17,705 nucleotides of DNA. Origin: a virus. This document shows positions 650-15,989 of this stretch, in pieces. The notes beneath the pieces are model-generated. The model did not search any database, was not told the origin of the DNA, and saw nothing but the letters and a program-made list of their open reading frames with translations. The DNA is taken from the UHGV virus genome UHGV-0090138, one strand, 5' to 3'. The first letter of the stretch is position 1. Each line of letters begins with the position of its first letter. The translations under genes were made by a program, and so were the position numbers.

Positions 650-1024
650 TTAGTCTCCAGGATTCCCGGGGCGGTTCAGTTCAGCATCTGCTGTAAGTCT
701 TGGGCTTTCTCCATCGCCCATGCTGCTGGCTCCGGTCTTTGACTTTGCACAGGAGGCGGCGACTTGCAGCCGCTTACGCCCAGCAGAAACATCATCACGG
801 AGACTTTCGATAGTCGCGTTAGCATCAGCAAGCTCCTTTGTATATCTGGCATCGAGTTCTGCTACGTCACGTTGACGCTTCTGCATGTCAGCGATGATGG
901 ATGTGGCTTTGTCGCGCTGTTCTTTGTAGGTCATGGCGTTATCACGGTAATGATTAACAGCCCATGACAGGCAGACGATGATGCAGATAACCAGAGCGGA
1001 GATAATCGCGGTTACTCTGTTCAT
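650..1024 (-). pseudogene. Rz: Rz i-spanin, C-terminally truncated by the IS insertion (phage-derived codons 679..1024; last 9 codons and stop are IS sequence)
   Basis: [30 protein letters not shown]...YTKELADA... matches lambda-family Rz; ATG 1024 overlaps the endolysin stop (ATGA); frame runs into the IS terminus at 678 after ~115 of ~153 expected codons. Confidence 0.75.
676..825 (-). CDS. Rz1: Rz1 o-spanin lipoprotein embedded in Rz (+1 frame); its stop codon is supplied by the IS terminus, so probably truncated
   Basis: My translation [49 protein letters not shown]: signal peptide plus lipobox (VSGC) followed by a proline-rich mature segment, inside Rz; TGA at 678..676 lies in IS-derived sequence. 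Confidence 0.45.
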
Positions 1025-1518
1025 TGCTGACCCCACAAACAGATTTCACGCTCAATCTCACGACGAGTCATGAGACCTTTCCATTGCTTACCGCCAGCAT
1101 ATGTCCAGCGACGTAGCTGATCACATGCGCCTTTGATATCGCCCTGGTTTATTTTGCGAAGAAGCGTCGATGTTCTGAAATTGCCAGCACCCACGTTGTA
1201 AACGAATGAGTAAAGAGCGCCGCGCATTGTTTCCGGTATATCGACTTTGATGTACGGGTTAATTTGTCTGGCGACCGTGGCAAGGTCTTTATTCAGGAGG
1301 GCTTTGCATTCTGCTTTGGTATACGTTTTACCGAGCATGATGTCTTTTCCTGTATGCCCGTGACATACAGTCCATACACCAACAATATCTTTGTATGGTA
1401 TGTAGCTGACACCTTCCAGACCATCGTTACCACTTGGGCCAGTAATTAACACTGATGCTATAGCAATTGCTCCGCCACCAATAGCAGCAGCAACGGCTTT
1501 TCGTAATGATGGAGGCAT
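1021..1518 (-). CDS. R: SAR endolysin (phage-21-type lysozyme R), 165 aa
   Basis: N-terminal signal-anchor-release segment ([20 protein letters not shown]) followed by a lysozyme domain; overlaps the holin stop and Rz start as in lambdoid lysis cassettes. Confidence 0.9.
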
Positions 1519-2321: not shown

Positions 2322-3404
2322 ATGAAAAAATTAACAGTGGCAATTTCTGCTGTAGCTGCATCAGTACTGATGGCGATGTCTGCTCAGGCAGCTGAAATTT
2401 ATAATAAAGACAGTAACAAGCTGGATCTGTACGGGAAAGTTAATGCTAAGCACTACTTCTCCTCTAATGATGCAGATGATGGTGATACTACTTATGCCCG
2501 TCTTGGCTTCAAAGGTGAAACCCAAATCAACGATCAACTGACTGGTTTCGGTCAGTGGGAATATGAATTCAAAGGCAACCGCGCTGAATCTCAAGGTTCC
2601 TCCAAAGACAAAACCCGTCTTGCATTTGCAGGCCTGAAATTCGGTGACTACGGCTCAATCGATTACGGCCGTAACTACGGTGTAGCATACGACATCGGTG
2701 CGTGGACTGACGTTCTGCCAGAATTCGGTGGCGATACCTGGACCCAAACAGATGTATTCATGACTGGTCGCACCACAGGTGTTGCAACTTATCGTAACAA
2801 CGACTTCTTTGGTCTGGTTGATGGCCTGAACTTTGCAGCTCAGTATCAGGGCAAAAATGACCGAAATGAAGTAACTGAAGCTAATGGCGATGGTTTCGGT
2901 TTCTCAACTACTTATGAGTATGAAGGATTCGGCGTGGGTGCAACCTATGCTAAATCTGATCGCACTAATAATCAGGTTATCTACGGTAACAACGGTCTGA
3001 ATGCTTCTGGTCAAAATGCTGAAGTATGGGCAGCTGGTCTGAAATATGATGCGAACAACATCTATCTGGCCACCACCTATTCTGAAACCCAGAACATGAC
3101 TGTTTTTGGTAATAACCATATTGCCAACAAAGCACAAAACTTCGAAGCTGTTGCACAATATCAGTTCGACTTCGGCCTGCGTCCATCCGTTGCTTACCTG
3201 CATTCTAAAGGAAAAGACTTGGGTGTTTGGGGTGATCAGGACCTGGTTGAATATGTTGATGTAGGTGCAACCTATTACTTCAACAAAAATATGTCCACTT
3301 TTGTTGACTACAAAATCAACCTGATTGATAAGAGCGATTTCACGAAAGCATCTGGCGTTGCTACCGATGATATCGTTGCTGTAGGTATGGTTTACCAGTT
3401 CTAA
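2322..3404 (+). CDS. OmpC/OmpF-family outer-membrane porin (prophage moron, NmpC/Lc-like), 360 aa with signal peptide
   Basis: Signal peptide [30 protein letters not shown], porin motifs ([13 protein letters not shown]..., C-terminal ...VAVGMVYQF); on the strand opposite Q and the lysis genes, as for nmpC in DLP12. Confidence 0.85.
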
Positions 3405-3419
3405 TTTGATTACTAAAAG

Positions 3420-3500
3420 ATATGTTGTGGGAGGCTTTGCCTCCCCAACATATAAGTGGCTCCCTCAAGCCACTTCCTTTAGAAGCACAACCTTGCTTCT
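3420..3500. other. Cluster of three consecutive stem-loops just downstream of the porin stop
   Basis: Inverted repeats atatgttgtgggaggc/gcctccccaacatat (3420..3454), aagtggct/agccactt (3454..3475) and agaagca/tgcttct (3481..3500); none is followed by a clear U-run. Confidence 0.5.
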
Positions 3501-3540
3501 AACTATACAAACCTTCTGTTATATATTACCCTTTATTTTT

Positions 3541-3566
3541 GGGGGCGTTTCAACGCCCCATTTTTA
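3541..3566 (+). terminator. Rho-independent terminator (likely porin terminator)
   Basis: GC stem ggggcg-tttcaa-cgcccc followed by attttt on the plus strand. Confidence 0.6.
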
Positions 3567-3592
3567 ATAACTTTTAGTAAATAATTGGCGTA

Positions 3593-3976
3593 TTAATTAG
3601 AGTTATTAACAACGATATCCATCTCTAACCGGATATCTAATGCCATTAACATCCCTTCAATTATGCCCTCAGCCTTCTGTAACCTTTTCCCGATATAACC
3701 ATCAGAGCAGCAATGCTTACCTGCCAGTGACATGAATGTCATACCGACTACATAATAATCTACTAATAAATCGTGCAAATCGCTGTTGTTCTTTTTCAGA
3801 CGGGCCATGCACCCGCAAATGATCATCGCGTCATCGTCACAACATTGCGGGCGAGATTTTACTTTTGAAGTAATTAATCCCTTAAAACCGGCGGCAATGG
3901 ACGACCAGGTCACATCTTCATGATTATTAGCCGCCCACGCTCCCCAACGCTCAAGAACCATCTGAATATCACGCAT
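3593..3976 (-). CDS. Q: Late-gene antiterminator Q (QuuD-like), 127 aa
   Basis: [34 protein letters not shown]... recognised as DLP12-type Q; start refined from the ORF-track start (3991) to the MRDIQ methionine. Confidence 0.85.
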
Positions 3977-4061
3977 CAACTTACTCCACAAAAATCAGAC
4001 CAGAACGCCAATTACAAGCAAAAATCAACAAAACAGTATTAGTTGATTGTTATCTCTGACT

Positions 4062-4202
4062 TCATACTCCTGCTCCTGTCAGTGTTTTGGCGTAATTCTT
4101 CAGTATTCGGTAATCGGTCAAAACAGAACCGGGGAAACGATATAAGCGCAGGCGCACCCAGCGGCGGCGAAGACGCTCTGCCATATAAGACTCAAACATC
4201 AT
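4062..4202 (-). CDS. ylcG: Small protein YlcG-like, 46 aa
   Basis: My translation [46 protein letters not shown]; start overlaps the rusA stop; position between rusA and Q matches DLP12 gene order; identity from memory only. Confidence 0.45.
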
Positions 4203-4561
4203 TCATCTCCCAGTTCGGTGATGGTCAGTTCCAGCCTCCCACCTTTGGTAACAGGCATCTTCACAACGCGGTAATCAACGACCTGAGCATCATCCAGCCA
4301 GAAACCTGCTTTAGTGAGTGCGTCAAAAGCGGCTTTTTGCAGATTATCCAGGTCACGGCGACGGCGATCCGGCATGTGGCACTCAATACGGATTTTCACT
4401 GGCATAGCCAGGCCGACATCCAGCATTGCGTTTTTAATGATTCGGGTGACGTTATCGCGGTATGCCTGCCCTTCTGCGCTGATGTGCGTGCGCCCGCGAT
4501 TATGCCGGTAGTAGCGGTTATTGCTCGGAGGCCAGGGTAATGTGATGCTGTAGGTATTCAC
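4199..4561 (-). CDS. rusA: RusA Holliday-junction resolvase, 120 aa (GTG start)
   Basis: [26 protein letters not shown]...[28 protein letters not shown]... recognised as RusA; start codon reads GTG and overlaps the stop of the upstream frame. Confidence 0.9.
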
Positions 4562-6613: not shown

Positions 6614-7311
6614 ACACTTGCTCCTTTCAGTCCGAACTTAGCTTTAATTTCTGCGATCTTCGCCAGAGCCTGTGCACGATTTAGAGGTCTACCGCCCATA
6701 ACAGGAAGTTGTTTTACTGGTTCAGGTATCGTCTCACCACGGTTAATTCGCGCTGTCATACAGGTCAGTTCATCGGCAGCCTTGCGCCGTAATTCCGCAT
6801 CAGTAAGCGCATTGGCCCGCATGTTCTGATACAGGTTGGTAACCAGCCAGTAGTGCGCGTTTGATTTCCACGGATAAGACTCCGCATCCGGATACAGGCC
6901 TCGCTTCCGGCAATACTCGTAAACCATATCAACCAGCTCGCTGACGTTTGGCAGTCCGGCGATAACGGATGCTTCTTCCCGGCACCATGCAACAAACTGC
7001 CCGGGTGATGGCAGAAATGGTCGATTCTGCCGACGGGCTACGCGCATTCCTGCGTTAACCTGTTCCATCGTGGTGATCCCGTTTTCCCGAAAAGCCAGAA
7101 CCCACTGGCGACGGATTTCGTTCACTTCGTTCTGGTCACGGTTAGCCAGGCTCGCCGGGAAAGTTGCCAGTAACTGGCTGAACACACCGTTGATGATCTG
7201 CGCTACCTGCTGTACCTGCGGCTTTTCGTCGTACTGTTCCGGCATGTTGTTGGCGATCCGACGCATCTGCTCACGGTCAAAGTTAACCATCTGTGCGGCG
7301 ATGTTTTTCAT
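6610..7311 (-). CDS. P: Replication protein P (DnaB loader), 233 aa
   Basis: MKNIAAQMVNFDREQMRRIANNMPEQYDEKPQVQQVAQIINGVFSQLLATFPASLANRDQ... matches lambda P. Confidence 0.95.
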   Translation of the reverse strand: MKNIAAQMVNFDREQMRRIANNMPEQYDEKPQVQQVAQIINGVFSQLLATFPASLANRDQNEVNEIRRQWVLAFRENGITTMEQVNAGMRVARRQNRPFLPSPGQFVAWCREEASVIAGLPNVSELVDMVYEYCRKRGLYPDAESYPWKSNAHYWLVTNLYQNMRANALTDAELRRKAADELTCMTARINRGETIPEPVKQLPVMGGRPLNRAQALAKIAEIKAKFGLKGASV

Positions 7312-8207
7312 AGATCCACCCCGTAAATCCAGTCAGTGTTTGTCAGGTCGAGTTTTGGTTTTCCGGCTGTCACGCCAGCCTGTTGCTTGTTACGGTTGAT
7401 TTCGAGCTGGGTCCACTTGTCGCGGAGTTTGGCCGGACTCAGCACGTTACCGGACCAGAAGTTGTCCTGGCAGGCCCAGCGGAAAAGCACACACATATCG
7501 CGGTGGTTACGTCCGTCACGTTCACGCATCAGGCGGATATCGTTAGCCCACCCAGCAAAATTCGGTTTTCTGGCTGATGGCGCGATGGTCTTCACCATGT
7601 CAAACATCCACTCTGCGGCGGTCAGGTCTTCTGCTGTTCCCCACTTACTGCCGCTCTGAATTGCAGCATCCGGTTTAACCACAGAAAGATCGTTTTCTGG
7701 CTGGTCAGAGGATTCGCCAGAATTCTCGGACGAATAATCTTTTCTTTTTTCTTTTGTAATAGTGTCTTTTGTGTCCCCCTGTTTTGAGGGATAGCAATCC
7801 CCCAATTTGAGGGATGTTTTATCCCTCGTTTTAGGGGATTTTCCCTCGTTTTGAGGGATACACCATTCTGAGATGTTTTTATTTGGTCCAAACATGCCGC
7901 CTTGCTGCTTGATAATATTCATTCTGACGAGTTCTAACTTGGCTTCATTGCACCGTTTGACAGGTAACTTTGTAATCTCGCTAAGTTGAGAATCGGTGAT
8001 TCTGTCCATTGGTTTATTCCACCCATAGGTTTTACGCAGAATGGCAAGCAGCACTTTAAACTGTCGCTTGGTCAGATCTGCGCCTGAATAAGCCTCAAGC
8101 AGCATATTTGATAGTCTGGCGTAACCATCATCGAGATCTGCCACATTACGCTCCTGTTTGGCAAAGTTACCTCTGCAGAAGTTGAGTATTTTGGCTGTAT
8201 TTGTCAT
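7308..8207 (-). CDS. O: Replication initiator O, 299 aa
   Basis: MTNTAKILNFCRGNFAKQERNVADLDDGYARLSNMLLEAYSGADLTKRQFKVLLAILRKTYGWNKPMDRITDSQ... matches lambda O; contains the ori iterons. Confidence 0.95.
   Translation of the reverse strand: MTNTAKILNFCRGNFAKQERNVADLDDGYARLSNMLLEAYSGADLTKRQFKVLLAILRKTYGWNKPMDRITDSQLSEITKLPVKRCNEAKLELVRMNIIKQQGGMFGPNKNISEWCIPQNEGKSPKTRDKTSLKLGDCYPSKQGDTKDTITKEKRKDYSSENSGESSDQPENDLSVVKPDAAIQSGSKWGTAEDLTAAEWMFDMVKTIAPSARKPNFAGWANDIRLMRERDGRNHRDMCVLFRWACQDNFWSGNVLSPAKLRDKWTQLEINRNKQQAGVTAGKPKLDLTNTDWIYGVDL
7735..7860. repeat. Lambda-type replication origin: four ~18-bp iterons plus adjacent AT-rich region, inside O
   Basis: Four tandem copies of tccctc-N-gaggga-type iterons (about 7774..7791, 7798..7814, 7822..7838, 7842..7858) with AT-rich tttcttttttcttttgtaat beside them, as in ori-lambda. 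Confidence 0.9.
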
Positions 8208-8677: not shown

Positions 8678-8893
8678 TTAAGCAGCTTTGTGCTCCGGCG
8701 GGAACACATCATCAAGACTTACTTTTGCGCCTAACTTGTTTAGACACGCAACAAGAGCACGGCATGTTTTAAGGTCTGGGAAGCGACGACCAGATTCCCA
8801 ATGTCCGATAGCTCCCTGTGTGCATCCAACTGCCTTAGCAAGTGTTGTTTGAGAGATATTCAGTGACTCTCGATATTTTCGTAGGTTGCTCAT
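8678..8893 (-). CDS. cro: Cro-like repressor (HTH, XRE-type), 71 aa
   Basis: HTH motif [23 protein letters not shown]; first gene of the minus-strand operon, divergent from cI; GGAGGG RBS. Confidence 0.85.
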
Positions 8894-9004
8894 ATGCCCT
8901 CCATAGTAACCACAAATAAAAAATACAATATGTACTCATTAAACACAAGCAAAAAATACACATTGTGCATGGATGGTTCCAGTACAGAGCGTAATAATAA
9001 GGAC
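8894..9004. promoter_or_regulatory. OR operator / PR-PRM divergent promoter region
   Basis: 111-bp cro-cI spacer with three related ~15-bp operator-like sites (8923..8937, 8955..8969, 8981..8995) resembling AGTACATAT(C/T)GTA(C/T)T; the same motif recurs at OL. Confidence 0.6.
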
Positions 9005-9664
9005 ATGAAAATGAAATGGTATGAACTGGCTAGATCCAGAATGAAAGAGCTCGGCATAACTCAAGAGAAGTTAGCCGAAGAGCTAGGTATGACGCAGGGT
9101 GGAATTGGACACTGGTTGCGCGGATCTCGTCATCCATCTCTTAGTGATATTGGTGTGGTGTTTAAATACCTTGGTATTGATAACATATCATTCAACCACG
9201 ACGGGACATTTTCACCTGTTGGCGAATACTCATCGGCCCCAGTTAAAAAACAATATGAGTACCCTGTTTTTTCTCATGTTCAGGCTGGGATGTTCTCTCC
9301 AGAACTCAGAACCTTTACCAAAGGCGATGCGGAGAGATTGGTAAGCACAACCAAAAAAGCCAGTGACTCTGCATTCTGGCTTGAGGTTGAAGGTAACTCA
9401 ATGACCGCACCAACAGGTTCCAAACCTAGTTTTCCTGACGGGATGTTAATTCTGGTTGACCCAGAGCAAGCTGTTGAGCCCGGCGATTTCTGCATAGCCA
9501 GACTTGGTGGTGATGAGTTTACCTTCAAGAAACTGATCAGGGATAGCGGTCAGGTGTTTCTACAGCCACTAAACCCACAATACCCAATGATCCCATGCAA
9601 TGAGAGTTGTTCCGTTGTGGGGAAAGTTATCGCTAGTCAGTGGCCTGAAGAGACGTTTGGGTAG
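9005..9664 (+). CDS. cI: CI repressor (N-terminal HTH + C-terminal LexA-like S24 autopeptidase domain), ~219 aa
   Basis: [26 protein letters not shown]; C-terminal [10 protein letters not shown]... and ...FTFKKL (Ser/Lys dyad); the ORF-track start 8894 is rejected because it would leave no operator region; start at ATG 9005 or 9011. Confidence 0.88.
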
Positions 9665-9852
9665 AGGCGAAGCAGCAATTGGTTTGATTTGGTATTGCTA
9701 TTTTTTCTCTAAAGTTGTTGAGCATTTTTCCGTTAGATAAAAATAGACGCAAATTTACATGATTTTTTTGTGCTGTATTGCTTGCTGAAAGCTAGGTTTT
9801 GCGTAAACTTCAATTACTCAAATTAGAGTAAACAACATATAGGACACCCCAC

Positions 9853-10074
9853 ATGAAAAAATCTGCAAAGCACTTTTTCAGCGCTATGGGCTCTATCCTT
9901 GACCTTTGCCCAGCAGGTAGCTACAGCGAGTATCATTCAAATGCTACAGACATCGACCTTATCAACTCAGATTGGGTTAAGGTAGGTAGTTACGTTAGAG
10001 ACGCTGTAACTGATAATGAGCAGAAAAAAATCCCAAAGAAAGCTTCAAACCGCCGCCCCGAGAAATCTTGTTAA
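9853..10074 (+). CDS. Hypothetical small hydrophilic protein, 73 aa (first gene of accessory locus in the rexAB position)
   Basis: ORF-track frame with AGGA RBS 8 nt upstream of the ATG; no recognisable motif; 3' end overlaps the next ORF by 59 nt across an A7 tract. Confidence 0.5.
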   Translation: MKKSAKHFFSAMGSILDLCPAGSYSEYHSNATDIDLINSDWVKVGSYVRDAVTDNEQKKIPKKASNRRPEKSC

Positions 10075-10549
10075 CCAACCAACTCCGTTAGGGCGAGTTC
10101 AAGACGGTAAAACCGAACTGCTTATAAATGAGGTCGCAAAGAACCCTCAAGTTCTTGAGCGCCTCATGGACAGGCCAGATCTAGCTGGCATCATGATGCA
10201 GGTGACTCACACTAGATCAGGGCCACTCCCAGACGCTGACGAATTAGCTAAGTACGAAAGAATATCTCCAGGATTCGCTCGCGAAATAATGGACATGGCT
10301 AAGGCTGAGCAAAAACACAGACACGAGTATTACAAAGCAGGACAGAGGGGAGCAATTTGGCGAGATCGACTCGGACAGATCTTTGCGATGACTTCTGTCT
10401 TTGTTTTCGCAGGAATTGCTTACAAGATGATTCAGCACGAGGCTTATGGCTGGGCTACCGGGCTTCTTGGTGCTGAGTTAGTTGCTTTAACTAGCGTGTT
10501 TATAATTGGAAGAAGAGACAAACCGAATCCAAAGCAAACTAAAAAATGA
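10016..10549 (+). CDS. Small membrane protein, 177 aa (possibly DUF2335-like): basic N-terminus, conserved central motif, two C-terminal transmembrane helices
   Basis: Motif PLPDADELAKYERISPGFAREIMDMAKAEQKHRHEY followed by hydrophobic IFAMTSVFVFAGIAY and WATGLLGAELVALTSVFIIG and basic tail RRDKPNPKQTKK; no convincing RBS before ATG 10016; DUF2335 assignment is from memory. Confidence 0.6.
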   Translation: MSRKKSQRKLQTAAPRNLVNQPTPLGRVQDGKTELLINEVAKNPQVLERLMDRPDLAGIMMQVTHTRSGPLPDADELAKYERISPGFAREIMDMAKAEQKHRHEYYKAGQRGAIWRDRLGQIFAMTSVFVFAGIAYKMIQHEAYGWATGLLGAELVALTSVFIIGRRDKPNPKQTKK

Positions 10550-10554
10550 GACAA

Positions 10555-10580
10555 CCCGGCTTCCGCGCCGGGTTTTCTTT
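10555..10580 (+). terminator. Rho-independent terminator ending the cI-accessory transcript
   Basis: cccggc-ttccgc-gccggg stem-loop followed by ttttcttt, 6 nt after the ORF stop. Confidence 0.75.
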
Positions 10581-10714
10581 GCCTAACGCCCCCAAAAAAA
10601 CACATAACCAATTGTATTTATTTTAAAATTAATAGATACAACTCACTAAACAACGCAATTCTGATCTCTCCCTACATCGCCGAGGCAATACACCCACGCT
10701 AAAAAACAACACTA

Positions 10715-10884: not shown

Positions 10885-10982
10885 GACCACCCAACCACAT
10901 AAGCTGTGGGATGCAATGCCGAAGCAACCGGCTCAGGAGGAGCTTCGAGATTGCATCGCCAAAGTTTATTCGGGAGGAATCT

Positions 10983-11255
10983 ATGTCCAGAAAAACAGAA
11001 TTTAAAGGCACCGCAGCTTCTCGCCGTAGAGCTCGTCGTGCAAACCTGCAAAGTCAGGAGGCGATCAGCTCTGACAAACTACACAGGCCAACCCCTTCAC
11101 GAGTGGTCTTACAATGCAAACGCAAACCAGTAATGAGAGCAGAAGTAATAACACTGACAACGTTGACCAGAAAATATGAAGGCTCAACTTGTCTTCCAAA
11201 TGTAGCCATTTACGCGGCAGGCTACAGGAAATCCAAACAGCTGACAGCAAGATGA
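10983..11255 (+). CDS. N: N antiterminator (short arginine-rich-motif type, H-19B/933W-like), 90 aa
   Basis: N-terminal ARM MSRKTEFKGTAASRRRARRANLQS and C-terminus ...CLPNVAIYAAGYRKSKQLTAR; GGGAGG RBS 5 nt upstream; start refined from the ORF-track start 10911. Confidence 0.8.
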   Translation: MSRKTEFKGTAASRRRARRANLQSQEAISSDKLHRPTPSRVVLQCKRKPVMRAEVITLTTLTRKYEGSTCLPNVAIYAAGYRKSKQLTAR

Positions 11256-15386: not shown

Positions 15387-15989
15387 TCATTCAGTATCAT
15401 CACGCGCGGTCTGTGCATATGTCACTACCGCACCTAATATATTAATTTTCTTTTCAACATAGATAATATTATCGTACTCATAATTGCCATACGGATAGCA
15501 AATGCGAATATTCTCATGTAGTTCGGGGTCATCCACCTCAGCTCCAGAACAACTTTTTGAACTACCGGAAGTATACCGATACGGTGCAACATAAGACGAT
15601 GTCTCTCCAGGCAAAAAATAAGTTAGTGTCGTAAGGGGTATAATCAGAAAAAATCCAGCAAATATGCACATCCCTGCATAAACCTTAAGGTATGCTGACA
15701 GACTCTTCCAGCCTCTTTGTTTTACTATCCCCTTCTTAACCCAAAACAGAGATAACAGAAAAGCTATTCCCATGCTAAACAGAATGTAATAGTGGGATAT
15801 ACTCTGATTAAGAAACGTGACCCTGTAGATATCTGCCCGCCACCAGAAGAAAAGGAAAATAAAGATCAGCCCTGAAACTGTCATGCAAATCAAATAAGGA
15901 TACGAATCTTTTTTCATGTTTAGCGCCCATAAAATTTTTCCTGACCCGGACAAATTTACCATCCATTTTTTGCGCAGAAAATAGCTCAT
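15387..15989 (-). CDS. Hypothetical integral membrane protein (3-4 predicted TM helices plus ~80-aa C-terminal soluble domain), up to 200 aa; AT-rich moron on the opposite strand
   Basis: ORF-track frame; hydrophobic segments LICMTVSGLIFIFLFFWW, YYILFSMGIAFLLSLFWV, VYAGMCIFAGFFLIIPLTTLTYF; AT-rich codon usage unlike flanking lambda-like genes; start ambiguous (Met 1, 10 or 25), no clear SD. Confidence 0.6.
   Translation of the reverse strand: MSYFLRKKWMVNLSGSGKILWALNMKKDSYPYLICMTVSGLIFIFLFFWWRADIYRVTFLNQSISHYYILFSMGIAFLLSLFWVKKGIVKQRGWKSLSAYLKVYAGMCIFAGFFLIIPLTTLTYFLPGETSSYVAPYRYTSGSSKSCSGAEVDDPELHENIRICYPYGNYEYDNIIYVEKKINILGAVVTYAQTARDDTE

Follow-up and report, generated by a model that had tools for sequence, protein, structure and literature searches.

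The stretch of DNA considered here (the window) comprises 17,705 nucleotides of the UHGV virus genome UHGV-0090138 and is a lambdoid prophage of E. coli; positions 9600-10650 are 100% identical to prophages of strain SLK172 and of other strains, and the integrase of the SLK172 prophage adjoins ybhC. Our subject is a pair of overlapping genes, ORF1 and ORF2, located between the cI-type repressor and an intrinsic terminator. The initial annotation of this DNA, made from the sequence alone, had described them as an uncharacterised module in the rexAB position and as a candidate defence or exclusion system, and we found all of the elements that it listed where it had placed them, or a few bases away. 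The cI-type repressor (8894-9664, plus strand; Pfam HTH_3, E=2.4e-10, and Peptidase_S24, E=1.4e-28), which PGAP labels a LexA family protein, is preceded by cro (8678-8893, minus strand). It is followed by a 188 nt spacer (9665-9852), which is AT-rich as described (34% G+C vs. 46% for the whole window), and then by ORF1 (9853-10074; 73 amino acids) and ORF2 (10016-10549; 177 amino acids), both of which are indeed co-oriented with cI on the plus strand. The intrinsic terminator detected by a terminator scan (10553-10582, plus strand, with its stem at 10553-10574) comes next, and an OL/PL-like region lies between it and an N-type antiterminator (10911-11255).

The conserved-looking motif reported in the centre of ORF2 is the Pfam domain DUF2335 (PF10097), a family that the initial annotation had correctly guessed. 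The match has an E-value of 1.4e-17 and a score of 63.8 bits, against a cut-off of 25, and covers all 50 positions of the model; in the Pfam alignment, the core motif SGPLPxPxxLxxYExxxPGxAxxIxxMAxxEQxHRH occupies amino acids 72-121 (10229-10378, plus strand). ORF2 also belongs to PHROG 3996, which is described as a "membrane protein" in the moron category (E=9.4e-43), and corresponds to the PGAP entry WP_000087627, a DUF2335 protein. Its N-terminus is basic, as proposed (residues 1-30, isoelectric point [pI] 12.0), and the two C-terminal transmembrane helices and the basic tail were likewise recovered. The hairpin (10373-10513, plus strand) consists of a first helix at approximately residues 120-140, a six-residue loop (HEAYGW), and a second helix at approximately residues 147-166, followed by a tail with a net charge of +4. 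Given that the loop contains no lysine or arginine, whilst the flank RDRLGQ and the tail are both basic, the positive-inside rule points to an N-in/C-in topology, in which the ~120 N-terminal residues are predicted to be cytoplasmic and the hairpin to expose only about six residues to the periplasm.

An AlphaFold2 model of ORF2 based on a 142-sequence alignment gave a mean predicted local distance difference test score (pLDDT) of 81.8, with block means above 90 over residues ~70-160; an earlier run on 22 close homologues was poor (pLDDT 56.8) and was not used. The model comprises a disordered basic N-terminus, two short helices (31-52) that represent a widely conserved NPxxLERxL segment, the proline-rich SGPLPxP loop followed by a short helix (74-83), a single continuous helix (87-140) leading from the cytoplasm into the membrane, and a return helix (144-167). 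The layout of a motif followed by two C-terminal helices was also found in the 142 diverse relatives. The columns that are at least 90% conserved in this alignment are G69, P70, P72, Y80, A88, I91, R102, G120, and F162; R102 is the sole charged residue at this level, which is not reached by any Asp, Glu, His, Cys, or Ser. As the conserved residues contain no obvious catalytic set, we read ORF2 as a probable structural or interaction protein, rather than an enzyme. A Foldseek search of the PDB with the model found no match, and a search of BFVD found two unnamed proteins only, which are probably homologous. ORF2 resembles class II holins in its two helices, its N-in/C-in topology, and its charged C-terminus. 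However, it differs from them in having a cytoplasmic domain of 120 residues, and in its location outside a lysis cassette, with the lysozyme and Rz genes of the prophage lying 8.5 kb away on the other strand.

The smaller gene, ORF1, is absent from the RefSeq/PGAP annotation, which calls the DUF2335 gene only, and it has no match in Pfam, NCBIfam, PADLOC, or PDB sequence profiles. It could therefore be argued that ORF1 is spurious, and that the unit is a single DUF2335 gene with a long leader. We consider this explanation effectively refuted. The ORF1 frame remains open, with a length of 65-76 amino acids, in homologues down to ~40% identity. When codons 1-54, which lie outside the overlap with ORF2, were compared with those of eight homologues at ~40-63% identity, the proportion of synonymous differences (pS) was saturated (0.53-1.0), whilst the proportion of non-synonymous differences (pN) was 0.14-0.42, and the dN/dS ratio was 0.14-0.42 wherever it could be computed. 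Among 19 sequences, twelve residues do not vary. The homologues also keep a Shine-Dalgarno sequence (AGGA or GGAGG) 6-9 nt ahead of the ATG; in the window it is the good ribosome-binding site noted initially (AGGA, 9841-9844, 8 nt ahead of the ATG). Furthermore, when distant phages are searched with a profile of ORF1, a similar gene appears in this position and at no other place in their loci. Since both frame and length are kept, and pN is low where synonymous sites are saturated, ORF1 is, by these comparisons, a real gene under purifying selection and not a chance open frame, and this small partner gene has been systematically overlooked by standard annotation in E. coli.

ORF1 corresponds to PHROG 26284 (E=1.5e-39), and its homologues form 23 clusters, most of them 73 amino acids long. 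The protein is hydrophilic, as had been stated (best 19-residue Kyte-Doolittle mean, 0.64). It has a basic amphipathic N-terminus, a motif MGSILD..P...Y, and a C-terminal helix motif DW..VG.Y.R.A; residues 1-54 as a whole are acidic (pI 5.4), and the tail that overlaps ORF2 is basic. We considered whether ORF1 might be a lipoprotein, or a secreted or membrane protein, and judged this unlikely: Cys19 is conserved in close relatives only, and the N-terminal segment, which is moderately hydrophobic at most across the family, resembles a membrane helix in just 5 of 43 family members.

The start codon of ORF2 lies within the 3' end of ORF1, such that the two genes overlap by 59 nt, with ORF2 in the +1 frame. 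This +1-frame overlap is kept in all eight diverged homologous loci that were compared (38-65 nt). There is no canonical ribosome-binding site 5-10 nt upstream of the ORF2 ATG, and a purine-rich stretch at -13 to -19 also codes for conserved residues of ORF1. Because ORF2 starts inside ORF1 and lacks a canonical ribosome-binding site, its translation would appear to be coupled to that of ORF1, and its output to be low. A run of seven adenines (10024-10030) is found inside the overlap, and deletion of a single A would join the two reading frames. We nevertheless rejected a fusion by frameshifting or slippage, given that ORF2 is in the +1 frame and none of 211 family proteins is an ORF1-DUF2335 fusion. 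In addition, the run appears to be broken in homologues whose ORF2 starts with MSRRK (as deduced from the protein alignment). With no fused protein found and the run apparently interrupted elsewhere, it is probably incidental.

The reach of the family became apparent from a profile of ORF2 homologues, which at E≤1e-3 matched 7800 clusters (representatives at 50% identity), 1015 of them at E≤1e-10; these are all small proteins of the same layout. Single-protein scans of viral contigs with distant relatives found mostly nothing, and the 142-sequence alignment was too diverse to seed such a scan; a distant-relative profile yielded 80 viral-contig loci, to which one earlier locus was added, and these were searched with an ORF1 profile iterated three times. 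An ORF1-like gene was present directly upstream of the DUF2335 gene, and usually overlapping it, in 49 of these loci. It was missing from 32, but 31 of these begin at the DUF2335 gene and have no upstream sequence, which leaves a single true exception (49/50). The profile matched nothing else in those viral loci.

The overlapping pair is also annotated in GenBank in cultured temperate phages of Klebsiella, E. coli, Staphylococcus, Pseudomonas, Streptococcus, Porphyromonas, and Arthrobacter. In Klebsiella phage BUCT711 and E. coli phage EC.W1-9 (Uetakevirus), it points away from an adjacent tailspike gene; in Klebsiella phage RAH1, it lies between tail genes; in Staphylococcus epidermidis phage E72, between an amidase gene and the integrase; and in Arthrobacter phage Gusanita, between two integrases. 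The pair adjoins the integrase in Pseudomonas phage MD8, follows the holin-lysin genes at the prophage end in Streptococcus phage Javan433, and is annotated in an accessory position in Porphyromonas phage023a. Scores of the ORF1 profile ranged from 85.7 to 21.6 bits for RAH1, MD8, E72, BUCT711, and Gusanita, were weak for EC.W1-9 (16.1 bits), and only marginal for the Porphyromonas and Streptococcus phages (8 and 5 bits, respectively). The core common to these ORF1 proteins is the C-terminal helix motif D(W/F)..(V/I)G.D(I/L/F)(R/K).A, which is preceded in most of them by GS(I/V)(L/M)D..P...Y. Around the distant pairs, we found genes for terminases, capsid and tail proteins, antirepressors, an Ltp lipoprotein, and helix-turn-helix proteins, but no third gene that recurs. 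Based on these sequence comparisons, the pairing of ORF1 with DUF2335 is ancient and widespread. The view that the unit is peculiar to lambdoid immunity regions consequently has to be corrected: it is one copy of a large, cross-phylum pair that is also found among tail genes, beside integrases, at prophage ends and, once, in a chromosome. A DUF2335 core without a detectable ORF1 was found in a few non-viral metagenome-assembled genomes (MAGs), beside glyA in Saccharibacteria, and after an amidase-like gene in Bacillota; in the Bacillota MAG (2782-4100 of the locus), the DUF2335 gene overlaps the end of the amidase-like ORF and has no ORF1-like partner. Indeed, in Gram-positive settings, the DUF2335 gene often lies just past an amidase or lysin gene (the Bacillota MAG, E72, and Javan433), which may reflect either a link with lysis, or simply the accessory region at a prophage end.

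Closer to the window, we surveyed 33 enterobacterial loci, with 17 distinct ORF2 variants, from E. coli, Enterobacter, Kluyvera, Cronobacter, Pectobacterium, Symbiopectobacterium, Photorhabdus, Yersinia, and Serratia. ORF1 is immediately upstream of ORF2 in all 33. A synteny survey of whether homologues recur beside repressors had been proposed at the outset, and they do so in 25 of the 33 loci (12 of the 17 variants), where the pair lies directly downstream of a co-oriented S24 repressor. These repressors are of 12 types, with mutual identities of mostly 20-60%, and an identical E. coli ORF2 adjoins four different cI types. In Yersinia and Serratia marcescens, the pair lies among tail or baseplate genes. 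In Serratia microhaemolytica (3805-4558 of the locus; ORF2, 42% identity), it stands alone in a 1.3-kb gap between uvrB and a dusA-like gene, in an 8.5-kb locus with no phage genes, and may be a remnant or a free-standing insertion. The pair is carried by 21 of 5426 complete E. coli genomes, and no close copy (>60% identity) was found among sequenced phage isolates. ORF1 and ORF2 proteins 100% identical to those of the E. coli cassette are also encoded on a 3.5-kb contig (JAJXBQ010000280.1) that had been assigned to a Segatella copri MAG, together with a cI-type repressor that has the same profile score as the cI in the window; this contig is almost certainly a mis-binned fragment of an E. coli prophage.

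The limits of the mobile unit can be drawn from an E. coli prophage with a different cI (WP_000250473, compared with WP_001302016), which shares positions 9634-10588 (plus strand; 35-989 of the query 9600-10650) at 99.4% identity. The 188-nt spacer is part of what they share, whereas cI, the upstream neighbour, is not, apart from the final ~30 nt of that gene. By this alignment, the pair is shown to move between phages as a unit, together with ~190 nt of upstream DNA.

The flanks of the cassette also define its position, which had been described as that of rexAB. The final ~70 nt of cI match phage CL707, and the terminator plus ~130 nt downstream of it align with the CL707 immunity region with few mismatches, at ~90-95% identity (94.2% over 120 nt); lambda rexA and rexB occupy the corresponding position, and the equivalence of the two slots is therefore upheld. 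In the CL707 immunity region annotated by Degnan et al., the hairpin is named Timm, and is the terminator of the PRM/PRE transcript. From the alignment, the terminator after ORF2 is homologous to this lambda-type immunity-operon terminator. In CL707, ev099, and 2B8, the same flanks enclose the 301-amino acid BstA (in CL707, PADLOC PDLC02356, E=1.3e-105), a validated prophage abortive-infection protein that is typically encoded downstream of repressors (Owen et al. 2021, PMC8585504). The cI-N interval has been described as a mosaic hotspot whose occupants have the highly transcribed promoter of the repressor in common (Owen et al. 2021, PMC8585504). The Timm flank is common to Stx phages, HK97, mEp332, and mEp234. 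In HK97, the slot (610-1514 of the locus) holds gp49 (87 amino acids), which overlaps gp48 (215 amino acids); in VT2-Sakai (1078-1599), it holds orf22 (172 amino acids); and in mEp332 (1457-2494), it holds mEp332_04 (345 amino acids). None of these proteins has a match in Pfam or PADLOC, and by their position they are further candidates for defence. The slot is thus a cargo hotspot, in which known defences make up two of the six cargo types examined. The small RNA svsR, which another lambdoid prophage carries at the cI 3' end, was considered and is not part of the module.

In the sense of Hendrix and colleagues, a moron is an independent accessory transcription unit (PMC3594210). As expected of such an element, the pair is inserted between genes that flank other cargo in relatives. 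It is also followed by a terminator, but this terminator is Timm, and so belongs to the conserved flank and not to the cargo. Taking the flanks and the shared cassette together, the region is, in our reading of the alignments, an autonomous two-gene accessory cassette, or moron, swapped into the cI-to-Timm slot of a lambdoid prophage.

How might the cassette be transcribed? An alignment of eight distinct upstream regions revealed a conserved non-coding block (9771-9809, plus strand) with a candidate sigma-70 promoter, consisting of TTGCTG (9782-9787), a 16-nt spacer, and TAAACT (9804-9809). With 8 of 12 consensus matches, the promoter falls under the threshold of the scanner. Nevertheless, the pattern TGCTGT...CTTG.TG...TTTTGCGTA.ACT is invariant across the eight regions and, since the synonymous sites of ORF1 are saturated between the same loci, the block is probably functional. 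The promoter-like block travels with the cassette. The sequence TGCTG occurs twice, 11 nt apart (9771-9775 and 9783-9787), in and just ahead of the candidate -35 element, and both positions are invariant in the eight diverged upstream regions; beyond the promoter elements, the two copies could be a binding site for a regulator. Just past the candidate -10 element, we read an inverted repeat, TTACTC-AAATTA-GAGTAA (9814-9831, plus strand). The other seven upstream regions have an inverted repeat of 4-6 bp near the same place, with different arms (ACTCA/TGAGT, TCAAC/GTTGA), and in a shifted register that precludes a count of covariation. The repeat could conceivably be a hairpin at the 5' end of the mRNA, or an operator. 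Rfam gave no match over 9600-10700.

Transcription may also enter from upstream. A terminator between cI and ORF1 was sought and rejected, as the hairpin at ~9662-9711 is no better than those of shuffled sequence (z=-0.91), and read-through from PRM/PRE is therefore plausible. At the other end, the strong intrinsic terminator described after ORF2 was confirmed, with a stem (10553-10574) of eight pairs, six of them G-C, and a T-rich tail, TTCTTTGCCT; it scores on both strands. From these signals, we infer that the pair is transcribed in the lysogen, by PRM/PRE read-through, by its own promoter, or by both.

Several other features of the prophage deserve mention. In the otherwise identical prophage of SLK172, an IS3-family element is located between cro and cII (6865-8078 of that locus), and a copy of IS100 adjoins a truncated ninB. 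The SLK172 copy is likely to be defective; the copy in the window has no IS3 insertion at that position. The window also contains a full-length Gram-negative porin gene (2322-3404, plus strand; Porin_1, E=3.6e-152), flanked by the Q antiterminator (3593-3991, minus strand) and the lysis genes (lysozyme, 1021-1518, and Rz, 650-1036, minus strand), and on the opposite strand to both. It resembles the lysogenic-conversion porins known from lambdoid prophages. Just upstream of xis/int, a 200-amino acid ORF (15387-15989, minus strand) runs against the orientation of its neighbours; it has no match in Pfam or PADLOC, is hypothetical according to PGAP, and is another orphan accessory gene of the same prophage.

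What, then, might the pair do? The interpretation offered by the initial annotation survives as far as position, architecture, and the lack of known homology are concerned; the defence or exclusion role that it proposed is a good candidate and no more. On the grounds of position and architecture, it is quite possible, if somewhat short of probable, that the pair is an exclusion or abortive-infection module expressed in the lysogen. More tentatively, we suggest that it may represent an unrecognised cross-phylum family of two-protein membrane systems of temperate phages, which would protect lysogens by exclusion or abortive infection, and which occurs in at least Pseudomonadota, Bacillota, and Actinomycetota, with weak evidence for Bacteroidota; the copy in the window would be its lambdoid form, allelic to RexAB and BstA. 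Mechanistically, ORF1 and ORF2 would form a complex at the inner membrane, composed of a small cytoplasmic partner and a hairpin-anchored protein, with coupled translation holding the membrane protein at a low and fixed stoichiometry. The complex might block the entry of phage genomes at the inner membrane (superinfection exclusion). Alternatively, it might act in a Rex-like abortive infection, in which ORF1 would sense infection or restrain ORF2, and the ORF2 hairpin would oligomerise and disturb the membrane.

A number of observations weigh against such a protective role. As had been anticipated, neither protein has homology to a known defence (PADLOC 2.0 gave no match for ORF1 or ORF2), and no characterised protein is similar to either of them. 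The other cargoes of the slot are of unassigned role, so that the argument from position rests on two known cases. A periplasmic loop of six residues offers little surface with which to stop a phage that arrives from outside, and the candidate promoter has only 8 of 12 matches to the consensus. Moreover, the DUF2335 core is found across phyla, and without ORF1 in non-phage settings, a pattern that suits a general membrane role no less well than a rapidly evolving defence gene. Such considerations suggest an alternative unrelated to defence, in which the pair would serve the temperate cycle or host physiology as a membrane-anchored regulator or scaffold for induction, lysis timing, or envelope stress (lysogenic conversion). 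In its favour are the strong conservation of the core motif in a very large family, the presence of the pair in nearly all kinds of temperate phage sampled, including late or tail operons where it is co-oriented with structural genes, the proximity of some relatives to lysis genes, and the chromosomal settings of DUF2335 outside phages. However, the pair in the window lies outside the lysis cassette (~650-1518), and family members occupy classic accessory positions, in the neighbourhoods of att, int, and the repressor, rather than conserved functional modules. Furthermore, the E. coli cassette is rare (21/5426), and its place can be taken by BstA or, in the lambda counterpart of the slot, by RexAB; it is therefore dispensable for the phage. 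On balance, we regard a non-defence role as unlikely, although it deserves serious attention.

An addiction module resembling a toxin-antitoxin system would account for some of the same facts. In such a module, ORF2 would be a membrane-damaging toxin and ORF1 would restrain it, with loss of the unit being costly and any anti-phage effect secondary. A small upstream gene overlapping a larger downstream gene is the arrangement throughout the family, ORF2 has a membrane hairpin with basic flanks, and the pair is an autonomous, highly mobile unit of prophages that in one instance, between uvrB and dusA in Serratia microhaemolytica, stands by itself. Against this, searches of Pfam, NCBIfam, and PADLOC found no DNA-binding domain and no toxin or antitoxin family in either protein, and ORF1 has no helix-turn-helix or ribbon-helix-helix signature for autoregulation. 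The occurrence of DUF2335 genes without ORF1 in some genomes is also difficult to reconcile with a lethal toxin, which should not tolerate the loss of its partner. We consequently think an addiction module improbable.

If the protective role is correct, a very widespread family would be added to the known prophage defences, with ~7800 DUF2335 clusters and the pair itself in temperate phages of both Gram-negative and Gram-positive hosts. The cI-to-Timm slot, where at least three other cargoes are of unassigned role, would likewise gain support as a hotspot for discovery. Even if the role lies elsewhere, a conserved membrane module, obligatorily paired and carried as cargo by many temperate phages, is a part of lysogeny biology that calls for explanation. 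We therefore present the pair as a strong and cheap candidate for experiments, rather than as a demonstrated surprise.

Where does the pair stand among known systems? ORF2 is a bona fide member of DUF2335 (PF10097) and PHROG 3996, both of which are families with no assigned function, and we found an obligatory small upstream partner in none of the DUF2335 family descriptions. Our literature search found no paper on genuine DUF2335, and the DefensePredictor supplements contain no DUF2335, PF10097, or WP_000087627. Three papers on type VI and type IV secretion systems do call "DUF2335" a Tle1-like phospholipase effector domain (PMC6267618; bioRxiv 10.1101/2023.07.16.549128; PMC13600407). Given that PF10097 is a motif of ~50 residues in small helical membrane proteins, this is probably a slip for DUF2235.

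The similarity to the HK97 gp49/gp48 pair is one of arrangement, in that a small protein (87 amino acids) and a larger one (215 amino acids) are encoded by overlapping genes in the same cI-Timm slot. However, the two pairs are unrelated by Pfam and PADLOC, and a tblastn search with ORF2 found no match there. Small inner-membrane proteins of phages and prophages that block genome entry include SieA of P22, Imm of T4, and gp15 of HK97. They serve as the mechanistic model for the exclusion branch of our proposal, but they are single proteins, whereas the pair has a conserved soluble partner and almost nothing in the periplasm; no match of sequence or fold to them was found for ORF2 or ORF1. As for SieB, for which Pfam presumably includes a model, the Pfam scan at E≤1 gave DUF2335 alone for ORF2, and nothing for ORF1. 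A closer parallel in organisation is gp30/gp31 of the mycobacteriophage Butters, a two-component prophage defence in which the two proteins reportedly cooperate against heterotypic phages (PMC7542560). Here too, adjacent and slightly overlapping prophage genes in the central lysogeny region encode a cytoplasmic and a membrane protein. The two systems are not homologous, however (DUF2335 profile vs. gp31, probability 0.4%), and gp30 has ~400 amino acids, compared with ~70 for ORF1.

Like the pair, RexA and RexB lie between cI and the immunity-operon terminator, co-oriented with cI, combine a soluble with a membrane protein, and are expected to be expressed in the lysogen. The statement that neither ORF resembles RexA, RexB, or SieB was borne out: Pfam at E≤1 gave no such match, and hhalign probabilities were below 1% for both Rex proteins (0.6% vs. 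RexB, and 0.1% vs. RexA). RexA has 279 amino acids, as opposed to 73 for ORF1, and the 59-nt overlap of ORF1 and ORF2 also sets the pair apart from rexAB. RexB is usually described as a four-helix channel, whereas ORF2 has two membrane helices and a cytoplasmic domain of 120 residues. RexB is called an ion channel in PMC8585504. BstA is the nearest known system in terms of location, since it occupies the very same slot, within the same flanking DNA, in CL707, ev099, and 2B8. Yet BstA is a single soluble protein of ~300 amino acids, and its PADLOC profile matches neither ORF1 nor ORF2. Set beside these systems, what appears to be new here is a gene pair that is conserved across phyla, carried as cargo of a known prophage accessory kind.

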